This document shows positions 8,984-64,000 of a stretch of DNA of 64,000 nucleotides, piece by piece. The stretch covers positions 10,588-74,587 of IMG/VR virus record IMGVR_UViG_3300017956_006678; one strand, given 5' to 3'. Every line of letters starts with the position of its first letter. The stretch's first letter is position 1. The DNA comes from a virus. The notes under the pieces were generated by a model that worked only from the letters and a program-made list of their open reading frames with translations, had not been told where the DNA came from and did not search any database. A program made the translations under genes and the position numbers.

Positions 8984-8985
8984 AC

Positions 8986-9693: not shown

Positions 9694-9699
9694 CATGTC

Positions 9700-13893: not shown

Positions 13894-13897
13894 CGAC

Positions 13898-15285: not shown

Positions 15286-15286
15286 A

Positions 15287-16063: not shown

Positions 16064-16068
16064 TTAAA

Positions 16069-17109: not shown

Positions 17110-17389
17110 TATAGATGAAACTATATGCAATTATGAAAATGTTGAGAGAAAGTATAAAAATGCTAAACCGGTTTATGAAAATATTAAAAAAATTAACAAT
17201 CTGTATAATGCTGGCAATAATATAATATACTGGACAGCAAGAGGCACAGTAACAAAAATAGATTACTATGAATTAACAAAATCACAACTAAAAAATTGGG
17301 GATGCAAGTATCATGATCTAATTGTGGGAGAAAAACCACACTATGATCTTCTAATATGTGATAAATCTAAGAGAATTGAGGAAATATGA
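17093..17389 (+). CDS. Minimal capless HAD-family phosphatase (capsule biosynthesis type)
   Basis: YVDIDETIC (motif I), YWTARG (II), EKP..DLLICDK (III/IV). Confidence 0.85.
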   Translation: MIIYVDIDETICNYENVERKYKNAKPVYENIKKINNLYNAGNNIIYWTARGTVTKIDYYELTKSQLKNWGCKYHDLIVGEKPHYDLLICDKSKRIEEI

Positions 17390-18213: not shown

Positions 18214-18214
18214 G

Positions 18215-23065: not shown

Positions 23066-23066
23066 G

Positions 23067-23798: not shown

Positions 23799-23816
23799 GA
23801 TAGAGGGAGGATATTA

Positions 23817-27311: not shown

Positions 27312-27362
27312 TTTACTTTAATGGTCTGTAAGATAAAATTATCTCTAATTAAAGAGGTAATT
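27312..27362 (+). promoter_or_regulatory. Putative promoter TTTACT-N16-TAAAAT plus an SD-sequestering hairpin
   Basis: AATTATCTC-taattaaa-GAGGTAATT (27337-27362), a 9-bp stem with one G-U pair; near copy of the element at 4110. Confidence 0.5.
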
Positions 27363-27363
27363 G

Positions 27364-28617: not shown

Positions 28618-28630
28618 TAAGAGGACAATA

Positions 28631-34406: not shown

Positions 34407-36248
34407 ATGGCGACAAATGTTAAGAAAGATTTAAAAAAAGCTAGAGATTTAAGTTATCTCAATAAAGATTTTGACAGTTTTAGATCAGACTTATTAGAAT
34501 ATTCTAAGATTCATTACAGTGATGTTATTAAAGATTTTAGTGAGGCAGGTCTAGGTGGTTTATTCTTAGATATGGCAGCTTACGTAGGTGATGTTATGTC
34601 ATTTTATCTAGATCACCAATTTAGCGAATTGAGTTTGGAAACTGCGATAGAAGATAAAAACATTATCCAGCATATTAAAGATGCAGGAGTAAAAATAAGA
34701 GGGGCTAGCCCTAGTTTTTGTGAAGTCGAATTAATACTTTCAATAGCAGCAGAAATTAAAAATGGAGTTTATAGACCAGCTGAAGCACAGCTTCCTATAA
34801 TTAAAGCAGGTACAATTGTATCGTCAATTGATGGTATTGATTTTGAAGTTTTGGAGGATATTGATTTTTCTGAAACTGATATATACGGCAATCTTAAAGC
34901 AGAATATGTTGTTGACTTTGTTGATGGTCAAAATAATCCGACAATTTACTTGGTAAAAAGGAATGCTGTTGTATCGAGCGGGAAAACCAATACAGAAACT
35001 TTCACATTAGGCACATATGTTCCGTTTAGAACAATAACTTTAAGTAATTCAGACGTCACAGAGATATTATCAGTAAAAGACAGCGAAGGAAACATATACT
35101 ATGAAGTAGATAATCTTTCTCATGATATTGTTTTTAATGCAATACCTAACAAAGAGGAGGATGAAGACAAGTCAGGCTTCAGTTTGACTTTAGATCCAGC
35201 GCCTAGAAGATTTATTACAGAAGTTAATTATGAAACCGGTTTGTCTAAAATTAGATTTGGGTCAGGGAAATCAGAATACGAAGATGAGGAAGTAATTGAA
35301 GACCCGACAGACTATGCACTACCTCTCTATGGAGAACGTTTGAATTTTAAAATTAATGCAGTAGATCCAGGTAATTTATTAGAAACAAAAACTTTAGGGA
35401 TATCCCCCCAAAATACTACGTTAACTGTAAGATATAGATATGGTGGAGGCGTTAATCACAATGTTACGCCTAGATCGATCAATACAGTTAAAACAGCAAT
35501 TATGGAATATAAAATTAATACTTCACCAATTATTCAAAATTCTGTGACTAACTCTTTAATAGTTAATAATCCTAGAAGCGCTAAAGGTGGAGAATCTAGA
35601 CCGTCTTTAGAAGAATTAAGAAATATAGCATTTAGTGCTAAGTCTAGTCAAGCAAGAATTGTAAATGTCCAAGATTTACTTTATAGAGTGTACACAATGC
35701 CAGCAAAATTTGGAAAAGTCTACAGAGTTGGTGTTTCAAAAAATCCAGTATCCAATAGCGTATTAATACATGTTGTAAGTAGAGATAATAGAGAAAAGTT
35801 AACATTAGCCAATGATACACTCAAAGATAATATTGCACTTTATATTAATCAATACAGGCTGATATCTGACAGTTATGATATTGTCGACGCAGCAATTACA
35901 AATATATCGATCGAATATATTATATCTGTAGAAAATGGATATAACAGTAACGAAGTAATATCTAGATGTAATTTATTTTTAAGAAATTATTTAGATACCA
36001 AGAATATGCATATTGATATGCCGATCAATAAAACCGATTTGACAAATTTGATAATTAACGCAGAAGGTGTTGAATCTTTAGCCGGTATTCGCGTTATAAA
36101 TAAACGAGGGTCACAAGAAGGTAGGGTTTATTCAAATGTATCATTTAGCCCAAATGAAAACACAAGAAGACAAAAAGTTTATCCACCCACAGGCGGGATA
36201 TTTGAAGTAAGATATCCTGAAGCTGATATTAAAGGAGCAGTTTTATAA
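34407..36248 (+). CDS. Baseplate wedge subunit, T4 gp6/BplJ-like
   Basis: KDFDSFRSDL, DFSE...FLDMAAYVGDVMSFYLD, IRFGSG, VRYRYGGG, AKGG, QARIVNVQD. Confidence 0.92.
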   Translation: MATNVKKDLKKARDLSYLNKDFDSFRSDLLEYSKIHYSDVIKDFSEAGLGGLFLDMAAYVGDVMSFYLDHQFSELSLETAIEDKNIIQHIKDAGVKIRGASPSFCEVELILSIAAEIKNGVYRPAEAQLPIIKAGTIVSSIDGIDFEVLEDIDFSETDIYGNLKAEYVVDFVDGQNNPTIYLVKRNAVVSSGKTNTETFTLGTYVPFRTITLSNSDVTEILSVKDSEGNIYYEVDNLSHDIVFNAIPNKEEDEDKSGFSLTLDPAPRRFITEVNYETGLSKIRFGSGKSEYEDEEVIEDPTDYALPLYGERLNFKINAVDPGNLLETKTLGISPQNTTLTVRYRYGGGVNHNVTPRSINTVKTAIMEYKINTSPIIQNSVTNSLIVNNPRSAKGGESRPSLEELRNIAFSAKSSQARIVNVQDLLYRVYTMPAKFGKVYRVGVSKNPVSNSVLIHVVSRDNREKLTLANDTLKDNIALYINQYRLISDSYDIVDAAITNISIEYIISVENGYNSNEVISRCNLFLRNYLDTKNMHIDMPINKTDLTNLIINAEGVESLAGIRVINKRGSQEGRVYSNVSFSPNENTRRQKVYPPTGGIFEVRYPEADIKGAVL

Positions 36249-37774
36249 TGTATAGAATTATTTCAGGAAGTAAAGACACATATATAACTAATAGAATAAT
36301 CAATAATACATTTAGAGCGACTGATGCAAATGTAGGTTTGGCTGGGACATTAGATCTTTTCAAGCTTTATGATGAATCAACAATATCAGGAGAGACGTCA
36401 CCTATTGAATTTTCTAGATTATTAATTAAGTTTGATTACGGTCCTATACAAACATTAATTAATAACGGTGAAATAGACATTGATAGTAATTCTTTTAATG
36501 TAACTTTAAAGCTTAAAGACGTTTATGGGGGTCAAACAACTCCTGCTAATTTTAAGATTATCGCAATGCCTTTAGCTAAAAATTTTGATGAAGGTAAAGG
36601 AAGGGATATAGTTAATTTTGCTGATGTTGGCGCTACAAATTTTATAACTGCATCATATTCAAATGGATCAGCAAATGCATGGGATATATCAGGTGCACGT
36701 GCTTCTGGAAGTTTAGGCTCTAGTAATTTAGATGTTTATATTAGTGGGAGTTTAGCTGGACCTAGTGGAACAAGTATTGTTAATTTAACTGCAGAAAAAT
36801 ATTTTGCGACAGGAAAAGAAGATTTAGAACTTGATATAACTACCGCGGTATCTGCTTCCCTCTCAGGGCAGATGACTAATCATGGATTTGTAATTGCATA
36901 TTCCGGATCGTATGAAACTGATGCAAAAACATATTTTGTAAAAAGATTTGGATCAATAAATGCGTCAAATATCTATGACAGACCTTCAATGATAGTAAAA
37001 TATGATGATAGCATATTAGATAATCATAGAAATTTTGTTTTTGATGTTACCGGATCCTTATTTTTAAATAATTTTCATAGAGGCGTAAGAAGTAATATTC
37101 TCTCAGGCACTAGTGCAACGCAAGTATCTGGTTTGGATTGCATGAAATTAATTCTCAAATCTGGTTCATATGCTAGTACGCATTCTGTATCACAACATAA
37201 AGTGGGCAATAATTTTAAAACTGGAATATATTCAGCATCTTTTGCAATTAGCGAATACCATGCTGACTTAATTCATAATGCAAAGTCAGCCAGGTCAGCT
37301 TCATTTACACAAATATGGTCATCAAATGATTTAACAATAGGTTATCTAACCGGATCTTTGATTATTGAATCTCCTTTTAGAAGTTCTTATGATGGATCGA
37401 TAGAAAGAATTCTTGTAACATGTAAGAATCTTAAATCAAATTATAGAAAAAATGACAGAGTGAAAGTTAGAGTTTTTGTTGAAAATAGAAATGAAAAAGT
37501 TATATTTCAAAAATTACCTACAGAAAAATTATCTGAAGTATACAATAACATGTATTTTAGAGTTGTTGATGTACAAAAAAATGAAGTAGTAATTCCATTT
37601 GATACGAATAGAAACTCTACCAGGTTATCTTCTGACTCTGACGGTATGTTTTTTATGATTGATATGGATAGTTTAACTCCGGGAAGAGCATATAAGTTTG
37701 AATTTCTAATTAGAGACTTTGATAATGACTTTTTTGTTAACGATGCTTCTGGGAAATTTATTATTAACAATTAA
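36248..37774 (+). CDS. Virion structural protein (baseplate-associated, beta-rich)
   Basis: KDTYI...SRLLIKFD N-terminus, C-terminal DSDGMFF...PGRAYKFEFLI; follows gp6; 11 [ST][GA]S motifs. Confidence 0.7.
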   Translation: MYRIISGSKDTYITNRIINNTFRATDANVGLAGTLDLFKLYDESTISGETSPIEFSRLLIKFDYGPIQTLINNGEIDIDSNSFNVTLKLKDVYGGQTTPANFKIIAMPLAKNFDEGKGRDIVNFADVGATNFITASYSNGSANAWDISGARASGSLGSSNLDVYISGSLAGPSGTSIVNLTAEKYFATGKEDLELDITTAVSASLSGQMTNHGFVIAYSGSYETDAKTYFVKRFGSINASNIYDRPSMIVKYDDSILDNHRNFVFDVTGSLFLNNFHRGVRSNILSGTSATQVSGLDCMKLILKSGSYASTHSVSQHKVGNNFKTGIYSASFAISEYHADLIHNAKSARSASFTQIWSSNDLTIGYLTGSLIIESPFRSSYDGSIERILVTCKNLKSNYRKNDRVKVRVFVENRNEKVIFQKLPTEKLSEVYNNMYFRVVDVQKNEVVIPFDTNRNSTRLSSDSDGMFFMIDMDSLTPGRAYKFEFLIRDFDNDFFVNDASGKFIINN

Positions 37775-37785
37775 GGATAAAAGTA

Positions 37786-40700
37786 ATGAAAAAGAGTTTA
37801 ACATTAGGAAATACAAAATTATTTGATCCTTCAGTTAAAAGAAATGAGAATTTTTTTAGTGATGAGGCTTTTTCAGATTTTGATTTTAAATCTGACAATG
37901 ATCTTTTATTTGAATCTAAAAGAGGTACCTCTAGATCAGGGCAATCATCAAAAACTTCGAAGTTTGGAAAAATATATTCAACTAGAGAATTAAATATTGA
38001 TTTTTCTAAATTTGAAAATCATACTTTTTTTGATTCTGCTGTTTCTAAAACAAATATAGCATTTGATCGAGTCATCAATAAGTTTCCTTTTGATCAGAGA
38101 AAATCTGATATTGAAGATTTTAAAAATGACGGAACAGGTTATGAAAATTATGTTTATGATCAATTTCCAAAAAATAAAGGTTTTATTCATTTCATATCAG
38201 CATCAAATCAACACATAGCCATCAAAGATTTGTCTGGGTATTTATATAGTACTGATAATGAAAAGAAAACCAATAATCCTGTATTCTCTCCGCTCAAAAG
38301 GGGTTTTACTACAGAATTTTGGTTAAGAGTCCCAGAAGAATCAAATCAAGAATCTATCGTATGTCAACTTATTGATACTAGTCGTGCAGGATTTTCTATA
38401 TCTTTAAGCGGGTCATCTGATTCGGCAACAAATTGCAATTTAAGTTTTACTGTGATTAGCGGGTCTAATGCAGAGACAATTACCACTTCATTAAAAAAAG
38501 GTGAATTCAAGTTTATATCTGCAGTTTATGACAACAATAAGAAGAATTCACAAATTTATATAGATTCCCAACTTAAAGTTACTTCGTCATTTAGAGATTT
38601 TGATAACTTAGAAATGAAATTGTCTGACTTTTTAATTGGATCAGGAAGTTCGTACACAGATGATGATGTTAATAGCACTACTTTTTTACCGCTAACAACC
38701 TTGTCAGGGGCAATTGATGAATTTCGTTATTATCATGGTGCAAAAGGTATTACACAAATTCAAGATACACAATACACATCTACTTTTTTAGATGCAGAAG
38801 ATAATCTAGATTTAATACTATATATGAAATTTAATGAACCTGCAGGATCATACACAGGTAATAGTATTGTTTTGGATTATTCAGGAAATAGTTTGCATTC
38901 TCAAATAACAAATTTCAGTGTAGCAATGAGAAATTCAGGGTCAGTTGCTACTATTCCTATAAAAAAAGAAAAATTATCAGATTGTCCAGTACTTTTTGCT
39001 GATAATTCAAATGTAAAATCTTTAAATACAAACTTATTGACTTCTGCATCACTTTATGATGAATTTAATCCTAATTTAATTACAAAACTTGTCCCAGTAC
39101 ATTATTTTCTAGAAGGACAACAAGAAGAAGGTTTTTCTAACTTGACAGGAAGTTTAGGAAATTCTTATGTAGGCGGTAATTTACCTAATACGGGTAAGTT
39201 AGGTTCTGGGCAACTATTAATGTCATTTCTTCTTATATGGGCAAAGTTTTTTGATGAAATAAAGATAAGTATTGATGCTATGGCGGATATACTTCATGTA
39301 TCGTATGATGATTTTGAAGGTTCTTCACCAAATTTTTACAAATTAATTGCTGAAAATAGAGGAATTAGACTTCCTAATATCATTGATAGCAATATAAGTT
39401 TTGATAAATTCCAAGATGGAATTAATATTAATAACACAGGAACTACTTCTGTGTATTCTCTCAATGATTTTCAAAATGAAATCTGGAAGAGAATCCTTAT
39501 CAATATCAGACACATTTATAAGGAAAAAGGAACAAGACGATCATTTCAATCATTGTTCAATACACTAGGTATTGATTTTGATAAGTACTTTTCTTTAAAA
39601 GAATACGGAGGTTCTAGATACCATTATTTAAGTGACTTAAGAAAAGAAGATAAGAAAGTTATTAAATTTATTGACTTAAGTGGTTCCTTTGCAGTTAGAA
39701 GTGATGCTGATAAAGCAGATATCGATGCGCAAGGTTTAAGCAAAGGTACCTCCGGAATTAATTCAGCACCTTATTTAATATCTCCTTTTTTATCTAGTTC
39801 TAGAATTGAAACCGGTTTTCCCGATATAGACGGAACATACGTTCAAAAAAATATATTTCCTCCGCATGGAATATCTAATGCAGTGTCAGATGGTTTGTTG
39901 ACATCAGGATCATTCACTTATGAAGGAATATACAAATTCGTAGGAAGTCACCATGTAACACAAAGTTTAGTTAGACTTCATGTAACAGGAACAGCTGCAC
40001 CAAGTTCAACATCTGGAGGAGTCTTAACAAATCTAATTGCAATTAATGATGGTAATAATTCTAAAATCAAGCTTTACGTTAAACCTCATGTTTCTTCTGT
40101 TGAAAATGATTTTTTAGAAATGCAAATAACTAGTGCTAGTCTATTTGATGGTAACCCGTGGTATGTAAGTTTTGGAAAAATAAGAAATGATGACAATATA
40201 TTTTATAATTCTGTTGATATTAAAAATACACCATCAAGTAGTTTCTTTTTAAGATGTGGAAGATTAGATAGCGGAAGAAAAAATGTTTATTTTACAACAT
40301 CAAGTTTTTATAATGAAAAATCAAGAAAGAATAATCAAACTAATTATTTTAATTCTATTGGCACAACTTTAAATGCAAGTGGTGCATACGCCTTAATAGG
40401 ATCCCAATCAATCACTGAGTCTCCTCGTTTTTTAAATTCTGATCAAGTTGAAAGTGAAGCCAGATATACAAATTTTTCTGGGCAAGTAAGTGGAATTAGA
40501 TTCTATAGTAAAGCAATCACAAAAAAAGGTTTCAAAGAAAGAATAAACAATCCTTTTTCTTTGTCTGTAAAGGATCCTATAAGAAATTATAATCATACGA
40601 CAAAATTAACCGGTTCTTTTGGAAAACTACGCTTAGATAATACAGTTACACGACAAATAACAACAAGTTCAAACGCTTCTGGCGAAATTTCTATATTTGA

Positions 40701-41322
40701 CAATTCACAAAATAATTTTAATTTTACCGGTAAAATGTTTGAAGCTTCAAAAAGAATATTGAAAACAGATCAAATTAAATTTACACGTGTTTCATATGAC
40801 TTTGATCAAAGAATATCTGATGACAAGGTAAGGGTAAGAAGTTACGAATTGCAAAAGAATTTAGAAAATTCTATATACTCAGTTAAAGCACCTCTATATG
40901 AGATACCTGAAAAAGATAAAAATGATAGTGATAAAAGAATTAGTATAGATTTGAGTGCAGTTAAAGCTCTTAATGAAGATATTGTTAAAATGTTTGAAAA
41001 CTTAGAAGTTTTTGATGAATATTTAGGCGATCCTCGTGATGCTTTTGAAGATTCTTATATAGACTTAGAAAAAGCGAGAGAGGTGTATTTTAATGATCTT
41101 TTGCAAAAATTAGATTTAGAAGCACATACTAAATTTTTTACATGGTTTGACAATAGTTTTACTGATCTTTTGCTTAGCTTGGTTCCTTTAGAAACAGTAT
41201 TTTTAGGCGTAAATTATGTTATCGAGCCACATATTTTGGAGAGAAATAAAATAAGATATAATTATAATCATCAATATTTGATAAATTCAAGAAATATTAG
41301 TGACGATAATCAATTTGGATAA
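37786..41322 (+). CDS. Baseplate wedge protein (gp7/tail protein I-like) with LamG-like domains
   Basis: EIWKRILINIRHIYKEKGTRRS (K-G-T wedge motif); FTTEFWLR...LSGAIDEFRYY and FSGQVSGIRFY (LamG-like); VIEPHILERNK. Confidence 0.7.
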   Translation: MKKSLTLGNTKLFDPSVKRNENFFSDEAFSDFDFKSDNDLLFESKRGTSRSGQSSKTSKFGKIYSTRELNIDFSKFENHTFFDSAVSKTNIAFDRVINKFPFDQRKSDIEDFKNDGTGYENYVYDQFPKNKGFIHFISASNQHIAIKDLSGYLYSTDNEKKTNNPVFSPLKRGFTTEFWLRVPEESNQESIVCQLIDTSRAGFSISLSGSSDSATNCNLSFTVISGSNAETITTSLKKGEFKFISAVYDNNKKNSQIYIDSQLKVTSSFRDFDNLEMKLSDFLIGSGSSYTDDDVNSTTFLPLTTLSGAIDEFRYYHGAKGITQIQDTQYTSTFLDAEDNLDLILYMKFNEPAGSYTGNSIVLDYSGNSLHSQITNFSVAMRNSGSVATIPIKKEKLSDCPVLFADNSNVKSLNTNLLTSASLYDEFNPNLITKLVPVHYFLEGQQEEGFSNLTGSLGNSYVGGNLPNTGKLGSGQLLMSFLLIWAKFFDEIKISIDAMADILHVSYDDFEGSSPNFYKLIAENRGIRLPNIIDSNISFDKFQDGININNTGTTSVYSLNDFQNEIWKRILINIRHIYKEKGTRRSFQSLFNTLGIDFDKYFSLKEYGGSRYHYLSDLRKEDKKVIKFIDLSGSFAVRSDADKADIDAQGLSKGTSGINSAPYLISPFLSSSRIETGFPDIDGTYVQKNIFPPHGISNAVSDGLLTSGSFTYEGIYKFVGSHHVTQSLVRLHVTGTAAPSSTSGGVLTNLIAINDGNNSKIKLYVKPHVSSVENDFLEMQITSASLFDGNPWYVSFGKIRNDDNIFYNSVDIKNTPSSSFFLRCGRLDSGRKNVYFTTSSFYNEKSRKNNQTNYFNSIGTTLNASGAYALIGSQSITESPRFLNSDQVESEARYTNFSGQVSGIRFYSKAITKKGFKERINNPFSLSVKDPIRNYNHTTKLTGSFGKLRLDNTVTRQITTSSNASGEISIFDNSQNNFNFTGKMFEASKRILKTDQIKFTRVSYDFDQRISDDKVRVRSYELQKNLENSIYSVKAPLYEIPEKDKNDSDKRISIDLSAVKALNEDIVKMFENLEVFDEYLGDPRDAFEDSYIDLEKAREVYFNDLLQKLDLEAHTKFFTWFDNSFTDLLLSLVPLETVFLGVNYVIEPHILERNKIRYNYNHQYLINSRNISDDNQFG

Positions 41323-41329
41323 GTAAAAA

Positions 41330-42424: not shown

Positions 42425-42427
42425 AAT

Positions 42428-45400
42428 ATGCCTAAAATTACAACAAGCACAACAACAAGTTTGGCCAAATCAATAAAAGCAAACGATACAACGAATGAAA
42501 CACTTGGATTGGCTACAACATCCCTTTCGGGTTTTCCAACATCAACAATTAATGTTAATGGATTTACAGTATCTTTTTGGGTTAAACTAGACGGATCTAG
42601 CTCAGATGTAAGACATGTTTATCATGACGATACAAGGTCAGGAGTGCATGGAGGTGTTTGGTTCCAAACAGCAAATCAGTTATATTTTAGAGCAGTTAAT
42701 TCTGGAGGAGCGTACGGTAGATATTGGTCAATTGATATTGCAGATTATCAGGAATGGGTTCATGTCGCAATAACTTGGGACGGCGACATGAACAATGGTG
42801 ATACAGAATTGTTTGTTAACGGTGTTTCTCAGGGTGCAGGAACCAATGCACTCGGCACAGGGTCAGGAACAACTCAGGCAATAACTGACTTATACATTTA
42901 TGATAAACAAGGTGTTTTAGATGGTTTTGAACTAAAAGGTGCCCTTGTCGACTTTGCAATGTGGAGTAAGGAATACACTAGCTCACAAATTCAAAACATT
43001 TATAATGGTGGCATTTATAATGATTATTCAGAAATGGGAGGTGTATACACACCCAACCTAATATTATGGTATAGACTAGGTGAAGAATCAACAATTAGTA
43101 GTTTAACAACAGGCGATAGCTTAAGCGCAGGAACACAATTTGCTGCAGCACATACTAGATCAGGTGTTAGTGGCGCTACGCTTACAGCACAGTCTAATAT
43201 AGATATGGAAATTGTAGAAGGTCCATACCAAGTAACAACAACGACAACAACAACTTTTTCCGGAATAACTAGTGATACGCCTAGAAGAACATTGAGAGCA
43301 AAGGATGCAGTAAGTGGACAATATCCTACTATCGCTAGAACTGGCGATTCTTCTAGAATGGGAAATTTTAATATTAATTTTGATGATAGGAATACAATTG
43401 TATTTGAAGAAAATACTACACTTCTTGAATATCCGCATTTAGGACTTTATCAGTCTTCTCATCCCCTCTTAAAATCAAACGCTTCAGCACATTCTACAAC
43501 AAATTCTGGAGTTATAGTAACAACAGGAAGTTTGGTCAAGGGTATCTCTGATGATTACTTATTAAAGGGTGATAGGGTATTAATAGGGTCAAGGTTAGAA
43601 AATGATTTAATAGCCAACGGCGAAGCTCTATCAGGATCTGTCAATATTACTCCATTTGATGAAAGTAGAATTAATTTAGGAACTAGTACATTTTACATGA
43701 CAGGAACTGCAGAAGACGTCTATCCTGGTTTTAGTAGTCGTCTTCACGACAAAACACAAATCGTCATTGATATGACAGCAAATGAGACGACATACTTTGG
43801 AAATACTAATAAATCAAATGATTCTTCTAGTCCTTACTTATATCAGTCCGATACTTCAGATGTAAAACAACCTTATATGGGTTATTACAATCATATACTT
43901 AAAAGATGGGAATCTATAGGTCAAGGTTTTGGAATGAACCAGACGTATGGTACAGAATCAAATTTAATCGATATAGTAAAAAAAGCTCAAATTGGATTTG
44001 ATGGTTGTATTGCAAAAATAGCTACAGGATCAGATCAAACAGGTAATGATTATCGTCTTTTTAATAATGATACACTTAATAGTACAATGAGGCCTATTTC
44101 GACTTTTGGTTTTCCTTTTGATGGAAGATATCATGCAACTGGGAGTCAAATAATTGACATGAGTCAATATATTAATGCACCTTTTGTTGTTGAAAAAGTT
44201 GTTTTTGAATTTAACGCACTTATAGAAACAGGTGATAGCCCAGGTACTGGTGATACTGACACAAATGGTTATAGATTAGGAGCAGGATATGGAGACCCGT
44301 CAGGCATAGGTAATTCTACAGATAGTATTTTTACAAATGTTGAAATTAGAAACTATAACTTTTTCTTGTTAAGACAATTTGAAAGTAAATTTGAAAAAAG
44401 TTGGGAAATAATTACAGGATCTGGAAGTCCTACTAATGAATCGGGTTTTCGATATGGAAAATTTACAGTAACAAGTAGTATTCCCGGGACTTTTGGGTTA
44501 GGAGGCGATAGTAGCACAATTACATTGGTTAAAGATGAAAGAGAATTAATCACATATGGACAACTTATTGATTATCATGTTGATGCATCAAACCCTCTTA
44601 CAAATGGATCAGGTTTTACAAAACAAGACGTTTTAAATAGTCCTCTTATCGCTGGGAGGGATGCAATATTTGAAAGAGAAACAGCATCTTTCGGTCAAAC
44701 ATCAGGTTCATCTTTAACGGGAAGTTTTATTGTCCCTTGTAATGTTAGGCATACTGCAGGAATACTTCCTGCAAATAGAATGAGAGTTTACACAACAAAA
44801 GGGACAGTAACTGAACTAGCTTTATGGATGCAAAATAGATATTCTAGTAGAGGTAGAGATACTTTAGATAAGTCCTCTAGAGCTTTAGTTAATGGTCATG
44901 GTTCAGTTTATAAAGGAGTTACTGAGAGATTACAACCTTTTTCATCTACAGAAGAGGCATTTCCAATAACACCTTCAGCAGCTGAAACGCTGGATGATCA
45001 TTCTCCCTACGTTTTGTTTCCGCAAGATAAAATCATTATAGGTTTTCAATATCCGCCACCTGAAAATTTAAAAACAGCTGGGGGTGTATTTGATGATGTT
45101 AGATTAAATAGAATGGGTTTTAACGGACCAGGAAAAATTACATTATACGGATCGCAAATTAAAGAAAATAAAGAATTTCATGACACGTTAAATCAAAACT
45201 TGACAACCTTAGGTGTCCATGAGGCAATTCATTATGATAACCCAACATTAGATCAATTTTTAGTTGCAACAGAAGCTGAATACAGTGGAAGCTATATGGA
45301 TACATATGTTAAGGGTGGCATTGGATCAGTTGCTAGAAGTATTGTGGGGACAGGCGGTAATGAAATTAGCGGATCTTTGCAGAGATTTAGAGGATTTGAT

Positions 45401-45742
45401 AATAGACAACAGAGATATTATGATTCTGTGTTAATTGATATTGAATCTATGTTTAAAGCTGATGGTTATAAGATGTTAGATGGAACAGCAATAGGGTTGT
45501 CTGATCCAAGAATTAGATTAGGGTCTATTACAACAGTAAGTTCTGGAGAATTTGTTCATAATTCTTGGCATGCAATATTTCCTTTTGAACCTCGTTATCA
45601 TAATTCTGCTAAAAAAATATCACAAAAAATTTATCTTTATCATGTAGGAGCAGAAAATGATAGTACAGGAAATTTATTTAATCGCTCCAATTTTAGTTTT
45701 TTAGGAACAGATGTTACAACTGACGCAGATTTAGAAAAATGA
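42428..45742 (+). CDS. Tail/baseplate protein with N-terminal LamG (ConA-like) domain; ends at a TGA that may be read through
   Basis: FTVSFWVK, EWVHVAITWD, LFVNG, GALVDFAMWS; GGAGG SD. Confidence 0.75.
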   Translation: MPKITTSTTTSLAKSIKANDTTNETLGLATTSLSGFPTSTINVNGFTVSFWVKLDGSSSDVRHVYHDDTRSGVHGGVWFQTANQLYFRAVNSGGAYGRYWSIDIADYQEWVHVAITWDGDMNNGDTELFVNGVSQGAGTNALGTGSGTTQAITDLYIYDKQGVLDGFELKGALVDFAMWSKEYTSSQIQNIYNGGIYNDYSEMGGVYTPNLILWYRLGEESTISSLTTGDSLSAGTQFAAAHTRSGVSGATLTAQSNIDMEIVEGPYQVTTTTTTTFSGITSDTPRRTLRAKDAVSGQYPTIARTGDSSRMGNFNINFDDRNTIVFEENTTLLEYPHLGLYQSSHPLLKSNASAHSTTNSGVIVTTGSLVKGISDDYLLKGDRVLIGSRLENDLIANGEALSGSVNITPFDESRINLGTSTFYMTGTAEDVYPGFSSRLHDKTQIVIDMTANETTYFGNTNKSNDSSSPYLYQSDTSDVKQPYMGYYNHILKRWESIGQGFGMNQTYGTESNLIDIVKKAQIGFDGCIAKIATGSDQTGNDYRLFNNDTLNSTMRPISTFGFPFDGRYHATGSQIIDMSQYINAPFVVEKVVFEFNALIETGDSPGTGDTDTNGYRLGAGYGDPSGIGNSTDSIFTNVEIRNYNFFLLRQFESKFEKSWEIITGSGSPTNESGFRYGKFTVTSSIPGTFGLGGDSSTITLVKDERELITYGQLIDYHVDASNPLTNGSGFTKQDVLNSPLIAGRDAIFERETASFGQTSGSSLTGSFIVPCNVRHTAGILPANRMRVYTTKGTVTELALWMQNRYSSRGRDTLDKSSRALVNGHGSVYKGVTERLQPFSSTEEAFPITPSAAETLDDHSPYVLFPQDKIIIGFQYPPPENLKTAGGVFDDVRLNRMGFNGPGKITLYGSQIKENKEFHDTLNQNLTTLGVHEAIHYDNPTLDQFLVATEAEYSGSYMDTYVKGGIGSVARSIVGTGGNEISGSLQRFRGFDNRQQRYYDSVLIDIESMFKADGYKMLDGTAIGLSDPRIRLGSITTVSSGEFVHNSWHAIFPFEPRYHNSAKKISQKIYLYHVGAENDSTGNLFNRSNFSFLGTDVTTDADLEK

Positions 45743-46195
45743 TTTTTTAATTCGTCATTTGCTGCTTTTTCATTTGGATCCGGCCAAAGAAACATGTTTA
45801 AATTTGTTAATGGCACTACACGTTTACATCGTCCAAAAGGGTTTAAATATGGTATTATTAATGCATTACCACAATTTACCAAAAATATATATCGAGGTGA
45901 TAAATTTGGTCAAAGAGCAGATATGTTAGAACAAGCACAGGATAGCAGGTTTTTAGTAGGTAGCAGTTTTACTTCTGATGGACCGCTAAGAATTAGATTT
46001 GTTTTAGATGATGATGATAATGACCAATATGTTTATTTGAATGAAAATGAAATCATAAATAATACGTATGAATCATCAAATCTGAGCATATATGCAACTT
46101 CTTCACTTCCGTTTTTTGATGATGAAACACCTAGAAATAGAGATTATGATAATATAAGTTTACCTAGTAGTATTTTAGAAGTTGTATCAACTTAG
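45743..46195 (+). CDS. In-frame continuation of the 42428 gene (ORF track calls it from ATG45794)
   Basis: Same frame; 17 sense codons between TGA45740-45742 and ATG45794; no SD before ATG45794. Confidence 0.6.
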   Translation, partial: FFNSSFAAFSFGSGQRNMFKFVNGTTRLHRPKGFKYGIINALPQFTKNIYRGDKFGQRADMLEQAQDSRFLVGSSFTSDGPLRIRFVLDDDDNDQYVYLNENEIINNTYESSNLSIYATSSLPFFDDETPRNRDYDNISLPSSILEVVST

Positions 46196-46207
46196 AGGTA
46201 ACGACTA

Positions 46208-48895
46208 ATGGCAAAGAAAAAAATTAGAGGAAAAACTATTAAATTAGCTGATGCAAATAAAGCTGATTATATAGTTCGAAAAAATGATGGCATCAATATT
46301 GACACTGTTACATTTCCTAGCGACGTTCAAATTGGACTAGCTTCAGGAAAAAATAGTAATTTAACTGTCACGGGACAAATCAAAGGATCGATTCAAGAAA
46401 CAAAAGATGGTTTGCCATATCTTGTTGCAGGTACAGGTATAACAATTGCCACAGGATCTAACGGTCAGGTGACAATAGAATCTTCTGGAGGTGGAGCATC
46501 AGGAGATATAACAAGTGTAATTGCTGGTAATGGTTTAACAGGAGGAGGGTTAACTGGAGATGTTACACTTAATGTTGGATCTGGAACAGGAATAGATGTA
46601 GGGGGAAATTCAATCAGTGTTGATGTTTCTGATTTTATGTCTAATGGAGCAGCTAATAGAATACTGACAGCCACGGGCCCAGATACAATGCAAGCAGAGT
46701 CTTTGTTATTATTTGACGGGACAACACTATCTGTGCCTAATAAAATTAAAGTTTCTGGGGATGTACATTTAACCAACACTGATCCATTTCTTGTCACAAA
46801 TAGCACAAATTTAAAAGTCCAGTCATCTGGAAGCATATGGGCACAAATTGATGATGGAGGAGATAAAACTTCAAGTTTCAGAATATATTCAGGCTCGCAA
46901 ATAATAATGAATGTCGAAAGTAGTAACTTTTCAACAACGTTTCCTGCCGGAGATATTTTTATAACAAATAATAATGACTTAAGATTAAATACAGGCGGAA
47001 CAATAGTCTTAGATAATAATAGCGATTCTGAAGTATACCTCAGCTCTTCAAGTGGATTATCTTTGGACATTGACAGTAATAATATCCTTAATTTATACGC
47101 AGACAATAATATAATTCATTATTTAGGAGATCATCAGGCTGGAACGTATTCTAGAAATTCTTTTAATGCAGGAAACAACACGTTTAACGTGGACAATGAT
47201 GATATGGACTTTAGAGTGCATACAAGCAACTATGAAGGTACATTCTTTGTTGATGCCGGCGACGATACTGTAATAATAGGCGCACAAGATTTTGATTCAA
47301 CCCCAGCAGCTTCAGAGCTTCTTTCAAAGGGTTATGGTAACGATGTTAAAATAATGTTGTCTGGGACTTATGACTCTAAGGACAGTTCGACCCGAGGTGT
47401 TGTTTTAATGACAGGTGACACAACAGTTTCCGGAAACTTGTATATAGCAGGAGACACTTCCGCAAAAAGAAAAATCTCATCGATCGGATCAATGGAAATT
47501 AGGTCTATAGATGGGACAACTTCTGTTGTCGGAGATAACAATGTTAATGTTTGGATTGGTTATGATGGAGCAGGTTCAAATCAATCATTTTCCATTTATA
47601 AGGGCACGGGAGGTTATGAGCAAATATTTGTTGTTAGTGAAGACAAATCAGTTAGAATATTTGGTGAACTAGATGTTGAAAGTAATTTAGTTGTTCATTT
47701 AGATTACGACTCTGATAATTCAAATTCTTATTTTGGAACTAAAAATGGAGGCGGAACTTTTAATCAGGTTTTTTATGAAGATGGAAGAGCTTATTTTAAT
47801 TATAGTAGACAGTCAACAGGAAATTTTATAGTCAATGGAGATAATGATTATGGATTAATATTTGTAGATGCTGGAGAGGACGCTGTTGCTTTAGGTAGTG
47901 CAATAGATATAAATCCTAATTGGTCTGAACTTACAGAAACCGGAACAGATGTTAAAGTATTATTATCAGGAACAATCGGTTCCAAAGATGGTTCAACACG
48001 AGGGGTTACATTAGCAGCGGGTGATTTTGCTGCTTCTGGGAGCATATACACGGGAGGCAACTTACTTTCACTAGATAGTACATTGGCTTTAAATGCTAGT
48101 TCTGAAGTTAGTTCTTTTGTATCTTCAAATAAAAATGCCACATATTCAAGTGCAACTGAGTTTAATACAAATCGAGCTGATGTTGATTTTGAAGTTAATA
48201 CAGATGATTATTATGGTACATTTTTTATTGATGGTAATGACAATACAATAATAATAGGACATGAACTATTTGACAGTTCCCCATCAGCATCAGAAGTTTC
48301 CGGATATGGTAATGATGTTAAAATTATGTTATCTGGATCTGCCGGATCAAAAGATACTTCTAATAGAGGTGTTGTTTTAGTGACAGGTGATTTAGTTGTC
48401 TCAGGGACTACTCATTTAACTAATTTAACCAGCCCGGGAAGCATATTATCATTTAGAAATTTTAATACAGTAAATGCAGAAGACTTTGATGTGCCTACAA
48501 GTTTTAACTTTATAGAAGGGATCACTTCTGGAAAGGCATACATAACATTTGATGCACCTTCAACAGGAAACGTTGAGTTAGAATTTAGTGTCTACGTTGA
48601 ACAAACTGGTGCTGGCGCTGACTTGTTTATGGCATTATCAACAAATGGATCTACATGGACAACTATTTCAAATACAGATGTAAAAGTTTTTGATGGAGAT
48701 GAGAATGACGATGGATATCGAACATTTAAATGGATTCTTACCGGTCTAACCTCTGGAACTTCTTATACATATTATTTTGGGGCAGAGTCTAATAGTAGTA
48801 CTGGTATTGACCTTAATTGGGGAAAAGCTTCTGCTGCTATTGGTTACCCACCTTTAATAATGAAAGCAACATCACTTCCAAATACTATTACGTAG
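46208..48895 (+). CDS. Tail fibre-like protein with internal repeats
   Basis: LVAGTGITI, GDITSVIAGNGLTGGG, GSGTGIDV fibre motifs; three internal repeats; C-terminal LTGLTSGTSYTY. Confidence 0.75.
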   Translation: MAKKKIRGKTIKLADANKADYIVRKNDGINIDTVTFPSDVQIGLASGKNSNLTVTGQIKGSIQETKDGLPYLVAGTGITIATGSNGQVTIESSGGGASGDITSVIAGNGLTGGGLTGDVTLNVGSGTGIDVGGNSISVDVSDFMSNGAANRILTATGPDTMQAESLLLFDGTTLSVPNKIKVSGDVHLTNTDPFLVTNSTNLKVQSSGSIWAQIDDGGDKTSSFRIYSGSQIIMNVESSNFSTTFPAGDIFITNNNDLRLNTGGTIVLDNNSDSEVYLSSSSGLSLDIDSNNILNLYADNNIIHYLGDHQAGTYSRNSFNAGNNTFNVDNDDMDFRVHTSNYEGTFFVDAGDDTVIIGAQDFDSTPAASELLSKGYGNDVKIMLSGTYDSKDSSTRGVVLMTGDTTVSGNLYIAGDTSAKRKISSIGSMEIRSIDGTTSVVGDNNVNVWIGYDGAGSNQSFSIYKGTGGYEQIFVVSEDKSVRIFGELDVESNLVVHLDYDSDNSNSYFGTKNGGGTFNQVFYEDGRAYFNYSRQSTGNFIVNGDNDYGLIFVDAGEDAVALGSAIDINPNWSELTETGTDVKVLLSGTIGSKDGSTRGVTLAAGDFAASGSIYTGGNLLSLDSTLALNASSEVSSFVSSNKNATYSSATEFNTNRADVDFEVNTDDYYGTFFIDGNDNTIIIGHELFDSSPSASEVSGYGNDVKIMLSGSAGSKDTSNRGVVLVTGDLVVSGTTHLTNLTSPGSILSFRNFNTVNAEDFDVPTSFNFIEGITSGKAYITFDAPSTGNVELEFSVYVEQTGAGADLFMALSTNGSTWTTISNTDVKVFDGDENDDGYRTFKWILTGLTSGTSYTYYFGAESNSSTGIDLNWGKASAAIGYPPLIMKATSLPNTIT
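47183..48415 (+). repeat. Three diverged ~85-aa repeats in the tail fibre (about 47183-47445, 47795-48050, 48161-48415)
   Basis: FN....DF.V......FFVDAG.D.V.IG...DVK(I/V)(M/L)LSG...SKD.S.RGV.L..GD...SG occurs three times. Confidence 0.85.
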
Positions 48896-48910
48896 TTTTT
48901 TTAGCAGGGT

Positions 48911-48923
48911 ATAATTATAAATT
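48911..48923 (+). promoter_or_regulatory. Possible late promoter ATAATTA directly before an SD-less ATG
   Basis: ATAATTA at 48911-48917, also intergenic at 34372 and 59964; weak given the AT-rich background. Confidence 0.3.
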
Positions 48924-49973: not shown

Positions 49974-49999
49974 AGATAGAATTTTGGAGAAAATAATTA

Positions 50000-53083: not shown

Positions 53084-53094
53084 GATAATATAAA

Positions 53095-57801: not shown

Positions 57802-57811
57802 AGAGAAAATT

Positions 57812-59938: not shown

Positions 59939-59963
59939 AATAAACATTTTTTTTCTTACCATT

Positions 59964-59981
59964 ATAATTACTATATAAATA
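59964..59981 (+). promoter_or_regulatory. Possible late promoter (ATAATTA and T4-like TATAAATA)
   Basis: ATAATTA at 59964-59970 and TATAAATA at 59974-59981 in a 58-nt intergenic gap, followed by a GGAG SD. Confidence 0.35.
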
Positions 59982-59996
59982 ATTCGGAGACATAAC

Positions 59997-60734
59997 ATGG
60001 GATTTTTAGATCACAGTACAAACAACATTATCGTTGATGCTGTTTTGACTAGAAAAGGAAGAGAATTTCTAGCAAATAATGATGGAAGTTTTAGTATTGT
60101 TAAATTTGCTTTAGGCGATGACGAAGTCGACTATACAGTTATTGAACAATATGGAAGAACCGTTGGTAAAGAAAAAATAGAGAAGAATACTCCTATTTTT
60201 GAAGGTTTAACAAATGGAGCTCAGGCTTTGAAACACAGATGTTTGAGTTTATCACCTGCAACTTTTGGTGGTGCACTTTATTATCCTGTACCTAGCTTCT
60301 TTGGAGATAGTAATTTAATTAATAATAACGTTTTAAAACTAAGTACAATTAATCAAACACTTAAAGATTTTAATTTTAGATTAACTATGGAAGATGAGAC
60401 ATCAATCCCTGAAGATTTTCAATCAGGAAATTTTGAAATATTATTAGATAGTAATCTTTTATTGCTTAGTGGTGAAGTTGCTGAATTTACATATCCAGAT
60501 GGAACAGCTTCATATGAAATACCTCCATCAACAACTTCAAATAGTAGGGTTGCTATTAATCCAACATTAGCAATAAAAAGAAGTTTGACCAGTTCTTCAA
60601 CATTTAGTTTCTATAAAGTCAAGTCTGAATCTTTTATAAGAACTTTTGTTACATTGAGACATAGAAATAGTGGTATATCAAAAACCATAGAGGTACAAAT
60701 ATTTAACACAGCGATTAGCTCTAGAGGAATTTAA
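59997..60734 (+). CDS. Virion structural protein with a tail-collar-like N-terminus
   Basis: DAVLTRKGREFLA...IVKFALGDDEVDY...IE..PIFE. Confidence 0.7.
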   Translation: MGFLDHSTNNIIVDAVLTRKGREFLANNDGSFSIVKFALGDDEVDYTVIEQYGRTVGKEKIEKNTPIFEGLTNGAQALKHRCLSLSPATFGGALYYPVPSFFGDSNLINNNVLKLSTINQTLKDFNFRLTMEDETSIPEDFQSGNFEILLDSNLLLLSGEVAEFTYPDGTASYEIPPSTTSNSRVAINPTLAIKRSLTSSSTFSFYKVKSESFIRTFVTLRHRNSGISKTIEVQIFNTAISSRGI

Positions 60735-60744
60735 AGAGGGATAA

Positions 60745-61986
60745 ATGAGTTCATATAAAGATTTAACTGCGAACGACATAAAAACAACGACAACATTTCT
60801 AAATCAATTAGTTAACGTTGTTTCACAAGACGTTTCGTCATCAGCTTCGTCAAGTACAAGAAAAAGTTACCAAGTTTTTGTAACAGGTGGCGTAGGTCCA
60901 GGAATCACTTCTTCGTTATTCCAAACTGTTTTTGATCAAGATTTTTCATTACAAACATCAAATGCAATGTTTGATATGACAGTAGGATTATTCTCTGGGT
61001 CTGATACGGTTTCAGTTGCGACAACGGGTGAAGATGCTAACGGTAAAATACTCTTTACATCAAAATCAGTGATGATGAGAGAAAAAATTAATGTTTATAG
61101 ACAATATGCACAATTCCTTTTAGGTGACGCTGATTCAAGATTTGCAGCTCCTTTTGGATCAAGCACGACAGCAAATCAAATTGATGAAGCAATGTTCTTA
61201 TCATTTAAGAGGCTTTTTCATCGTGATGGAATTAAACGTGAAACATTTGCAATGAAATTTTTTCAAACAGGTGTTATGTCAAATCACGAGCAAAGTGGAC
61301 AACCGATAAGACCAACACTTGAAGTTACTTCTACAAGCGGATCAGTCATCTTTACTGACGTAGGATCATCAACAAATGTTGAAAGATCACAAGTTGGTGG
61401 GGATGTAGGTAATATTGTTGATGCATCTAATACTAATAGAACAGTTGGTAATATTTTCTATCAACAAGGTATTGTAGTTTTAGACTTAGCAAAAATAATA
61501 TCCGGATCACAACACGTTTCAGGTGTTATACCGGGTATGAGAAGCGGAACTTCTAGAGACTATGCATCAGGTGAAGTAGGAATTGGTACAGTTGATGAAT
61601 CGCAAAATGCTAAATACATTCCAGACTTTTTAGTATCAGGTTCTATTGATTCTATTGTAGATCACTTAGCATCAACAAGATTTGGAGACGGAAGCACAGT
61701 TGCTATGGCTTTTCAAAATGAAACTGCAATTAATTCAACATTGATATTCTGTAGAGCTGAAGCTGATGAATTTAATTTCTCATCAAACCCAACTTATACA
61801 AATGACTCAGGAAAGTTAAGAGTAATTGATACAGGACAAGAAAATCAACAACTTCCTTTCACAATGGTAACCACAGTCGGGTTGTACAATGAAGCTGACT
61901 CTCTCTTAGCAGTTGCAAAATTGAGTCGTCCTGTAGAAAAAAATGAAGAGAAAGATATTACATTCAGAGTACGACTTGACTTCTAA
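60745..61986 (+). CDS. Virion structural protein (tail/baseplate)
   Basis: VGNIFYQQG, FCRA...EFNFSSNPTY, TTVGLYNEADSLLAVAKLSRP...RVRLDF. Confidence 0.7.
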   Translation: MSSYKDLTANDIKTTTTFLNQLVNVVSQDVSSSASSSTRKSYQVFVTGGVGPGITSSLFQTVFDQDFSLQTSNAMFDMTVGLFSGSDTVSVATTGEDANGKILFTSKSVMMREKINVYRQYAQFLLGDADSRFAAPFGSSTTANQIDEAMFLSFKRLFHRDGIKRETFAMKFFQTGVMSNHEQSGQPIRPTLEVTSTSGSVIFTDVGSSTNVERSQVGGDVGNIVDASNTNRTVGNIFYQQGIVVLDLAKIISGSQHVSGVIPGMRSGTSRDYASGEVGIGTVDESQNAKYIPDFLVSGSIDSIVDHLASTRFGDGSTVAMAFQNETAINSTLIFCRAEADEFNFSSNPTYTNDSGKLRVIDTGQENQQLPFTMVTTVGLYNEADSLLAVAKLSRPVEKNEEKDITFRVRLDF

Positions 61987-61997
61987 TGGAGCATTAG

Positions 61998-64000
61998 ATG
62001 TCATTTATAAAACTTAATAAAAGCCTCTTCGAAACATCATCAATAATATTACGCAAAAATGTAACTTACACTAGTAGTTCTATTGATGGTGTTTCAAATG
62101 CTCTTAAATTATCAAAAAGAGAATTAGGCTTTAAAGAAGTAACACAAGATTCTGCAGTAGCTAATTATTCAGATAGTTCTATAACAAACGTAACAAATAG
62201 AACAAATGATAATGCGTATACAGGTTACTTACTGCTACCTAATTCTGAAGTTCCTGGTAATCCTAATCCATTTGACGGAAAAGGTGTAACACCTACAAAT
62301 ATACAACCCCAGTTATTTCAGGATTATACAGACTTACTCAATGTAGCTCCTGAAAATACGATGCGTTCTTATGTCACCGGTGTTTTCTATGATTATGACT
62401 CCAGATTTAAATCTCTAAGTATTCTAGGAGGATTAAGATCTTTTCCACAATTTATAGCTACTTATGTGGAAGGCACTACAATATCTAAGTCTACAGGATT
62501 AGCAAAACAAATTAATTCTGTTAATAATACAGATGCACTATATGCAGGGAATAAATCTGTACACGATTATGTTTTTGACCAAACACCCGACATTGATCCT
62601 TTTAGTATTTTTGAATTGCATGCTGACATTAATGATGGAAACTTAGATTTAAACGGATCTAAAGCTTTGTTTAAAAAAGCAGACTTTAAAAAGACGGTTA
62701 TTGACCACTTAATCCCACATTACAAAACTAATTACAATAATTGTGATTTTTCTTATACTAATTATAATTGCTTAAATTTCTTTTATGATTCCAATAGCGA
62801 TCACACAGGAAGAGAAGTTTTAGTATATAATTCTGGATATCCAAGTTATCTTGCAAACTATAATACAAATGGAACTTTAAATTCAAATGTGGCAGAATTT
62901 TTTGTTTCTTGTTGGGTTAATCCTAAGTATAAAAATAGCGAAGCAAATGGAGACATGAACACAGGAACAATTCTTCATATTTCTTCTTCACTAGCACTAT
63001 CAATTGTAACTGGTTCTCATAGAGATGAAGAAGGTTACGCTGATCGATATCGTTTAATGGTACAATTAAAACATAGCGCAGGAATTAATCCTTCCACTTT
63101 TTTAGTTACTGGTTCATCCAATAGAATAGATGATGGAAGATACCCGCACGACTTAATATATTTAACAGATGACAACTCAATTAAGAGAAATACATGGAAT
63201 TATGTGTCTGCAAAATGGGGATATACTAAAAATAGTCAGCAATTAACGTTAAGAATTAACGATAAAAAATATACATACACAGTTCCATCAGCAAGTATAT
63301 CAGAAAATAATGCTTTTGGCAATGAAGTTACGTCCGGAGTTCCCTATGCTTTTGTAGGAAATTATCATGATGGGGAAGCTTCAACAATTAAAAACTATTT
63401 TGATACTAATAAGTCCAAGATAGATTTTGCTAGATCTATAGGAGGTGCTACAGCACATGCAGTCCCTACTTTTGTTAATACACAGCATGTTAATCATTTG
63501 CAAGCAGAACTTCACGAGCTTAGAGTTCATGGTTCTTATTTGAGTGATACAACTGAAGAAAAATATCGTTATACAAGTTTTGATAATGCAAATTTTAATC
63601 ATCGAGTACACAATTTAAATCTATATATTCCAGGTTGGTATGATTCAAATATTCATAATTCACAATTAGAAGATTCGACAACTGGGCTTATTTTATTTAA
63701 TCCTGCATTATATGGCGGAAATTATTCTAAAAGTGATGGCTACGAATATCTGTACAATGGAGTCACAAATCCTTTTATGTCACATGGTATAGGAGGAAAA
63801 TACGTCAATCTTCACAATTTTACTAGTAATTTTTCTAGATCTAGATTATTTGAACGTCCGGCAAGCAATAATTATGGTTACACTAGACCAATACATTTCA
63901 ACATGTCAGCAAGTTTAATTGCGCATGTAACAGATACTAGTGCTGCCTTAGTATCGGTAAGAGATACACTAGCAAATCAAGATTCTATAATAAAGAGAAA
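61998..64000 (+). CDS. Virion protein with LamG-like domain (3' truncated by window edge)
   Basis: GGAG SD, ATG61998, MSFIKLNKSLFETSS...; FFVSCWVNP, TWNYVSAKW, AELHELRV; appears open to the window end, so absent from the ORF track. Confidence 0.75.
   Translation, partial: MSFIKLNKSLFETSSIILRKNVTYTSSSIDGVSNALKLSKRELGFKEVTQDSAVANYSDSSITNVTNRTNDNAYTGYLLLPNSEVPGNPNPFDGKGVTPTNIQPQLFQDYTDLLNVAPENTMRSYVTGVFYDYDSRFKSLSILGGLRSFPQFIATYVEGTTISKSTGLAKQINSVNNTDALYAGNKSVHDYVFDQTPDIDPFSIFELHADINDGNLDLNGSKALFKKADFKKTVIDHLIPHYKTNYNNCDFSYTNYNCLNFFYDSNSDHTGREVLVYNSGYPSYLANYNTNGTLNSNVAEFFVSCWVNPKYKNSEANGDMNTGTILHISSSLALSIVTGSHRDEEGYADRYRLMVQLKHSAGINPSTFLVTGSSNRIDDGRYPHDLIYLTDDNSIKRNTWNYVSAKWGYTKNSQQLTLRINDKKYTYTVPSASISENNAFGNEVTSGVPYAFVGNYHDGEASTIKNYFDTNKSKIDFARSIGGATAHAVPTFVNTQHVNHLQAELHELRVHGSYLSDTTEEKYRYTSFDNANFNHRVHNLNLYIPGWYDSNIHNSQLEDSTTGLILFNPALYGGNYSKSDGYEYLYNGVTNPFMSHGIGGKYVNLHNFTSNFSRSRLFERPASNNYGYTRPIHFNMSASLIAHVTDTSAALVSVRDTLANQDSIIKR

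Follow-up and report, generated by a model that had tools for sequence, protein, structure and literature searches.

A recurring [ST][GA]S tripeptide in the tail proteins of a marine jumbo-phage clade, a candidate acceptor sequon for phage-encoded O-glycosylation

Introduction

The priming O-linked N-acetylglucosamine (O-GlcNAc) transferase of Gram-positive serine-rich-repeat adhesins is a complex of two proteins, GtfA and GtfB, in which a DUF1975 domain contacts the partner and the acceptor (PMC6973325). The complex primes alternating-serine repeats, and the sugars are then extended by a variable set of transferases (PMC6973325). In mycobacteriophages, glycosyltransferases encoded by the phage are thought to decorate its own structural proteins (Freeman et al. 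2023, as summarized in PMC12619734). The subject of this paper is a 64,000-nt stretch of viral DNA, referred to as the window, that covers positions 10,588 to 74,587 of record IMGVR_UViG_3300017956_006678, a 74.6-kb fragment. Several of its tail proteins contain a recurring tripeptide, [ST][GA]S, and two adjacent glycosyltransferase genes, GT-A and GT-B, lie upstream of them. It is proposed here that [ST][GA]S, usually followed by Leu, Phe or Tyr, may be the acceptor sequon of a phage-encoded protein O-glycosylation system, a proposal for which we judge the chances to be even.

The GtfA/GtfB complex is the closest working analogue of GT-A/GT-B. Both consist of two adjacent genes of the GT-B-fold, GT4 type whose products form a complex, which for the phage pair is predicted by a model. 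Both combine a conserved pair, putatively priming in the phage, with a variable number of extending glycosyltransferases, and cytoplasmic action on the Ser/Thr of S-x-S-type units is proposed for the phage pair as well. There are also differences. A Pfam scan (E<=0.001) found Glycos_transf_1-type families only and no DUF1975 in GT-A or GT-B, and Protein Data Bank (PDB) searches with the phage pair gave no sequence match to GtfA or GtfB. GtfB has been described as a non-catalytic chaperone, whereas phage GT-B keeps an E-x7-E motif and looks catalytically intact. The candidate acceptors in the window are isolated tripeptides within folded beta-sandwich domains and not long disordered Ser repeats; tandem arrays are found just in a fibre of Flavobacterium phage immuto, while in the window proteins the motifs are dispersed. 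Accessory Sec export has no counterpart on the phage side, where the virion would be the target.

The mycobacteriophage systems resemble this locus in that the phage itself encodes the glycosyltransferases. As summarized in PMC12619734, capsid and tail-tube subunits carry their glycans there at the C-terminus and the chemistry is proven, whereas the candidate sites described here, which are predicted from sequence, are tripeptides inside the baseplate and fibre proteins of T4-like myoviruses and, in immuto, inside the sheath protein as well. Virion glycosylation is itself known in mycobacteriophages; what would be new is an internal tripeptide sequon on myovirus tail proteins that is tied to a GT4 heterodimer. 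A literature search found no paper describing this motif in phages.

An earlier note on this DNA had likened the motif to the D-[ST]-hydrophobic O-glycosylation motif of Bacteroidota, the likely host phylum of related phages, whose sequon is D-(S/T)-(A/I/L/V/M/T). Both are three-residue Ser/Thr sequons with a hydrophobic or small neighbour. The likeness holds as an analogy only, as the Bacteroidota sequon is at expectation in the phage tail proteins (26 occurrences in six proteins, 23.6 expected). Bacteroidota O-glycosylation is also periplasmic and has exported proteins as its targets, whereas the cytoplasm is where phage tail proteins fold. In the TibC/TibA and Aah/AIDA-I systems a cytoplasmic O-heptosyltransferase reads a short strand-loop-strand motif that recurs in a beta-rich surface protein. 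TibC and Aah belong to a different enzyme family than GT-A/GT-B, use a heptose donor and work as a single enzyme rather than as a GT4 pair.

Motif excess in the tail proteins

The excess of [ST][GA]S over 1000 whole-protein shuffles is confirmed for three proteins of the window, all of whose genes lie on a single coding strand (+). The 508-aa outer baseplate protein, encoded directly after a gp6-like gene (36248..37774), has 11 motifs where 1.5 are expected (z 8.0), at residues 6, 134, 153, 166, 202, 219, 268, 305, 329, 350 and 368. The 1178-aa protein of the baseplate or tail (37786..41322), which contains a ConA/LamG-like lectin domain (PF13385 in homologs), has 11 vs 2.6 expected (z 5.5), and the 1104-aa tail protein (42428..45742), which begins with a Laminin_G_3 domain (PF13385, E 6e-16), has 12 vs 3.4 (z 4.8). 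Marginal excesses occur in a 413-aa protein (60745..61986; 5 vs 1.5, p 0.02) and in the last open reading frame (ORF), which is open at its 3' end and runs off the window after at least 667 aa (61998..63998; 4 vs 1.5, p ~0.05). The 895-aa fibre-like protein (46208..48895) is not enriched (6 vs 4.0, p 0.22).

The earlier note had counted by hand 11, 11, 12, 6, 5 and 4 motifs in the 508-, 1178-, 1104-, 895- and 413-aa proteins and the last ORF, and all six counts were reproduced exactly. Its total of about 45 in 4,100 aa for the five complete proteins became 45 in 4,098 aa on recounting, and its statement that L/F/Y follows the motif in 10 of 11 cases in the 508-aa protein was also confirmed. 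The motif had been presented as a trait of all the listed tail proteins. This description is apt for the three strong cases, applies marginally to two and fails for the 895-aa fibre, about whose S/G/T-rich composition the note had itself been cautious. Elsewhere the motif is at expectation: the gp6-like protein has none (0.84 expected), the three large proteins of 1027, 1568 and 708 aa between 50000 and 59938 (Ser 8.5-9.0%), which serve as a non-enriched control, have 2 in total vs 3.7 expected, and the gp25-like protein and the glycan-locus enzymes, the latter with 0-1 motifs each, are likewise at expectation.

Could the excess be a compositional or counting artefact of Ser/Gly/Thr-rich proteins? 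The proteins are indeed Ser-rich (10-12%), and for the 895-aa fibre the excess is gone once composition is counted. For the three main proteins the explanation fails in the shuffle, block-shuffle and residue-order tests. Whole-protein shuffles and 20-aa block shuffles each give p<0.001 for the enrichment, which is kept after shuffling inside 20- or 40-aa blocks. The order of the residues matters, as the permuted forms [GA][ST][ST] and [ST][ST][GA] are not enriched. Other Ser-rich proteins of the window show no excess, and the Ser-rich ORFs (11-16% Ser) of the uncultured 484-kb phage LR756508 are at expectation. An artefact is therefore extremely improbable. Within the three strong proteins SGS is the most over-represented well-populated tripeptide (16 vs 2.6), and the usual context of the motif is hydrophobic-x-hydrophobic-[ST][GA]S-hydrophobic.

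The N-x-S/T and D/ExNxS/T sequons are at expectation in the tail proteins of the window, as is the Bacteroidota sequon, which shows that there is no general Ser/Asn effect. A DNA-level cause of the excess was also ruled out: the serine codons at the motifs are a mixture of TCN and AGY, so the signal is at the protein level and is not a DNA word.

Two further observations concern individual proteins. In the 895-aa fibre the related forms S[GA][ST] (11 vs 4.1 expected) and [ST][GA]T (8 vs 3.3) are frequent, and Thr may perhaps be tolerated at the third motif position in some proteins. A 1255-aa database protein that is 100% identical to the window reads through the TGA at 45740-45742; this readthrough product (42428-46195) corresponds to the 1104-aa ORF fused to a 133-aa ORF at 45794-46195.

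Conservation and turnover of the motif

Homologs were collected for the 508-aa family (116 sequences, 50-97% identity) and the 1178-aa family (more than 100), and observed/expected ratios were computed on 60 sequences per family. The ratios are 6.6x and 4.5x and the lowest values 3.9x and 2.2x, respectively; the 1178-aa homologs have a mean of 13.4 motifs. The density is held while the positions move. There are 39 distinct motif-bearing alignment columns in the 508-aa family and 111 in the 1178-aa family, of which just 5 and 3 are near-universal, and minority positions hold about 30-40% of the motifs in each protein. This is the behaviour of a selected short linear motif and not of an inherited structural element. 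The motif hydroxyls are conserved as Ser/Thr in 96% of homologs in the 508-aa family, vs 62% at other Ser/Thr positions (p 4e-8), and in 74% vs 48% in the 1178-aa family (p 9e-4).

The main alternative is that the motif is structural only. A small-Gly-small sequence followed by a hydrophobic residue would cap or start beta-strands and form tight hairpins in beta-sandwich domains, and would also serve as the repeat unit of the fibres, no modification would take place, and the link to the glycosyltransferases would reflect shared ancestry. This explanation is possible though rather unlikely. It agrees with the hydrophobic residues that flank the motif and with the positional conservation of the core sites of the 508-aa family, where, of 116 homologs, 99 have T134-A-S and 104 have S219-G-S. 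It is at odds with the high positional turnover at constant density and with the kind of replacement that is tolerated. In the 508-aa family the motif hydroxyl is replaced almost exclusively by Ser for Thr, whereas for small buried residues one would usually see exchanges to Ala, Gly or Cys.

The deeper orthologs of the 508-aa protein, from immuto (369 aa), Microcystis phage Mel-JY01 (386 aa) and LR756508 (420 aa), were aligned with mafft --add and have most of the motif sites not in common with it. The motifs of immuto and Mel-JY01 are mostly at other positions and the LR756508 ortholog has none. At site 219 the SGS is replaced by SDD, SDE or SDS in these outgroup orthologs, and at site 6 by P-E, P-N or RPK. 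Such substitutions indicate that the fold can do without the tripeptide, which is a second point against a purely structural role.

Predicted structures and motif placement

The AlphaFold model of the 508-aa protein (predicted local distance difference test, pLDDT, 83.5; predicted template modelling score, pTM, 0.82) is predicted to contain a jelly roll similar to a carbohydrate-binding module (CBM) at residues 1-254, an IPT/immunoglobulin (Ig)-like domain at 256-376 and an Ig-like domain at 384-508. The jelly roll matches a chondroitin-sulfate-binding CBM (8wab_B) with Z 15.8 and an alginate-binding CBM with Z 14.2, and the model suggests that the protein is a polysaccharide-binding baseplate protein. 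The same residues 1-254 (36248-37009) are also similar to a subunit of Bacteroidota beta-barrel assembly machinery (BAM) complexes (Z ~11). For the 1178-aa protein the model has a pLDDT of 77 and its fold matches are of the ConA/LamG lectin type.

The two models hold 22 motifs, of which 13 lie at a strand edge or a strand-flanking turn, and the other nine are divided equally among mid-strand, helix and loop positions (3 each). Clean two-residue hairpin tips are formed at motif 305 of the 508-aa protein and motif 225 of the 1178-aa protein. This placement is what a structural role would lead one to expect, but strand/turn junctions are preferred only weakly (null 42%, p 0.08-0.09), and the weakness of this excess by location class (p 0.08) speaks against that role. 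The earlier note had expected the motifs in exposed loops. In these models the placement matches neither a buried structural turn nor a long exposed loop cleanly.

The glycosyltransferase pair and the glycan island

GT-A (27361..28617) is a 418-aa and GT-B (28601..29803) a 400-aa glycosyltransferase of the GT4 type (Glycos_transf_1). They match PF00534 with 51.1 and 37.7 bits, respectively, where the curated cut-off is 26.4 bits. The first 17 nt of GT-B are also the last 17 nt of GT-A. The E-x7-E residues of GT-A, E289 and E297, are invariant; in GT-B E281 is invariant and the second Glu follows eight residues later in the consensus. No other gene of the set is as conserved as GT-A (72% mean column identity), which is thus above the tail proteins. 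The pair is located 6-9 kb upstream of the 508-aa gene in all 32 of the related IMG/VR loci with enough flank. GT-A and GT-B are also adjacent in immuto, Mel-JY01 and the Rhodothermus phage RM378, with a weak GT-B match in RM378, while in LR756508 a GT-A homolog is present and GT-B was not found.

A complex between GT-A and GT-B is predicted. Its model has an ipSAE of 0.87, whereas the best of three controls scored 0.00. Of 80 solved complexes 58 come up to this mark, and of 110 mismatched pairs 2 do so; the score for GT-A/GT-B may partly reflect likeness to solved glycosyltransferase pairs. At least 97% of the contacts agree between runs, with a partner pLDDT of at least 90. In the predicted interface the C-terminal residues 412-418 of GT-A dock on residues 249-257 of GT-B.

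It is proposed that this conserved, translationally coupled pair (27361-29803) would prime Ser/Thr at [ST][GA]S in the cytoplasm of the infected cell. A variable glycan-synthesis island of about 25 kb upstream of the pair (4129..26417) would supply the nucleotide sugars and extend the glycan. The island contains GT2 and several GT1/GT4 glycosyltransferases, a radical S-adenosylmethionine (SAM) enzyme with a SPASM domain, a pyruvyl transferase, a methyltransferase, RmlD/GMD-type enzymes, a UDP-glucose dehydrogenase, a 2-oxoglutarate (2OG) oxygenase and nonulosonate-type genes. The number of glycosyltransferase genes varies among relatives. A relative inside the clade that lacks glycosyltransferases was not found; of four long IMG/VR records, three reach far enough upstream and all three have glycosyltransferase clusters, and the fourth ends too near the gene to show them. 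As regards a DNA target for the pair, nucleoside analysis of immuto DNA found fdPreQ1 and the paper mentions no glycosylated base (PMC10516641), which makes such a target less likely.

A different modification (phosphorylation, acylation or radical-SAM chemistry), or recognition of the motif by an assembly chaperone or a host or phage partner, would also account for the conserved motif hydroxyls, and the island does encode the radical SAM/SPASM enzyme (11951-13006), the methyltransferase and the 2OG oxygenase. No further enzyme that tracks the motif was found, although co-occurrence of the radical SAM gene and other island genes with the motif was not tested. We consider this group of explanations improbable. 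One member, a PrkA-like kinase suggested in the earlier note, was dropped, since immuto, Mel-JY01 and RM378 have the motif excess but no PrkA (PF08298).

Some observations on these genes stand apart from the argument. The radical SAM enzyme at 11951-13006 could have either a sugar or a protein as its substrate. The GT-A homolog of Mel-JY01 (PP395634, 83441-84932) is present as two ORFs, 83441-84013 and 84024-84932, which could be due to a frameshift, a sequencing error or a real split. In RM378 (NC_004735, 9165-14008) and in Streptomyces phage Comrade (NC_048728, 6047-10084) two overlapping glycosyltransferase-like genes stand immediately before a ribonucleotide reductase.

Motif excess in other phages

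If the motif is an acceptor site for GT-A/GT-B, does its excess follow the pair? ORFs were called enriched at p<=0.01 with at least 4 motifs. The excess is present, in proteins of the tail or probably of the virion, in every tested phage with an adjacent GT-A/GT-B pair, namely this clade, immuto (8 of 90 ORFs enriched), Mel-JY01 (12 of 103) and RM378 (6 of 90). It is absent from LR756508, which has GT-A only (0 of 235 ORFs), and from the structural proteins of T4, which has no such pair (0 of 17 enriched; 12 motifs observed vs ~19 expected). The motif therefore follows the pair, and GT-B especially. LR756508 is as close to this clade by gp6 as immuto and Mel-JY01 are (31-34% identity) and yet is negative, so the excess does not follow gp6 relatedness. 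T4 and LR756508 also build comparable tail proteins without the motif, which again disfavours a purely structural role. Two further phages are uninformative because their enzymes are not orthologs: Synechococcus phage S-EIVl, with a lone, weak GT-A-like gene, has no excess, and Comrade, with a distant adjacent pair, has no clear excess. The earlier suggestion that the motif is an acceptor site for the adjacent glycosylation machinery has gained partial support of a comparative kind in that the excess follows the pair; the whole island is not the best correlate.

The enriched ORFs of immuto that have names are sheath and fibre/spike proteins, and the others are hypothetical proteins in baseplate or structural-gene regions. 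No enrichment is seen in the immuto tape measure, portal, terminase or gp6. The immuto 'tail spike' fibre (MW353176, 97614-100775) has 53 motifs in 1053 aa, 43 of them followed by a hydrophobic residue. Its tandem units include SGSFSGSFxGDGSxLTGI, TASYWSGSF, SASFAESSNTASIAT and SASYATTASY, with spacings mostly of 6 or 9 residues.

Several points weigh against glycosylation at the motif. The motif is structurally flavoured, with its hydrophobic flanks and its sites at strand edges and turns, in mid-strand and in helices, and in the immuto fibre it occurs in tandem repeats, as is typical of fibrous folds; repeats such as SGSFSGSFxGDGSxLTGI and SASYATTASY favour the structural explanation. The 895-aa fibre of the window has no excess, and the enriched ORFs of RM378 are mostly without annotation, only two of them having virion-type PHROG matches. 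GT-A and GT-B match generic GT4 enzymes only (PDB chains of BshA, MshA-like and sucrose-phosphate synthase-like enzymes and chlorovirus B736L), so that the candidate substrates include a lipid, a polysaccharide and a small molecule. The positive phages may also share ancestry. In the gp6 tree LR756508, immuto with Mel-JY01, and this clade form an unresolved trichotomy, and RM378 is unplaced, as a profile search found no gp6 in it. The tree is compatible with a single origin of the motif excess and the pair, as the structural explanation would have it. With such possible shared ancestry the correlation between the pair and the motif would be based on few independent events and one informative near-relative that is negative.

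Genomic context

The window has a G+C content of ~30% and is organized in three blocks, the glycan-synthesis island, a T4-type baseplate module and a series of large tail proteins. The gp25-like wedge gene (33866-34375; phrog_43) and the gene for the gp6-like inner baseplate wedge protein (34407..36248; phrog_6 and phrog_219), the internal control used above, adjoin the motif-bearing genes, as in the baseplate module of T4-type contractile tails. Most tail proteins of the window gave no family in Pfam or PHROG searches. This includes the 1027-, 1568- and 708-aa proteins, which may be internal virion proteins.

A tblastn search with the 508-aa protein gave no match in cultured phages, and more than 1,688 homologs are found in marine metagenomes on contigs of up to ~300 kb. 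CheckV estimates of related records imply jumbo genomes. The nearest cultured phages by gp6 are immuto and Mel-JY01. Putative glycosyltransferases are among the widely shared orthologous groups of the "moraphages", a jumbo-phage lineage of Bacteroidota (PMC12619734).

Conclusions

A theme that emerges from these comparisons is that [ST][GA]S appears to be a short linear motif that selection maintains on the outward-facing proteins of the baseplate and tail in this marine jumbo-phage clade. That GT-A/GT-B acts on protein, and at this motif, and that the island builds the glycan, is inferred. A broader and more tentative proposal, which falls a little short of an even chance, is that widespread aquatic T4-like and jumbo phages have a heterodimeric GT4 priming enzyme, GT-A/GT-B, with Ser in [ST]-[GA]-S-hydrophobic sequons as its O-glycosylation site. 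These sequons would be found where strands meet turns in the outward-facing proteins of tail, baseplate and fibres, and lineage-specific islands would elaborate the glycan into a sugar coat of the tail.

If the motif were structural only, it would still mark a lineage by the particular way in which its beta-sandwich tail domains are built, which would be of modest interest. If it is a true sequon, it would be the first defined sequon of a phage virion glycosylation system. It would then be possible to predict glycosylated tail proteins from their sequences in a group of phages that is large and abundant in marine and fresh waters, and the function of the "polysaccharide" islands of jumbo phages would become testable. 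The cultured phages immuto and Mel-JY01 would offer a two-gene enzyme and a three-residue tag for study. A sugar coat on the tail could influence adsorption, stability or recognition.

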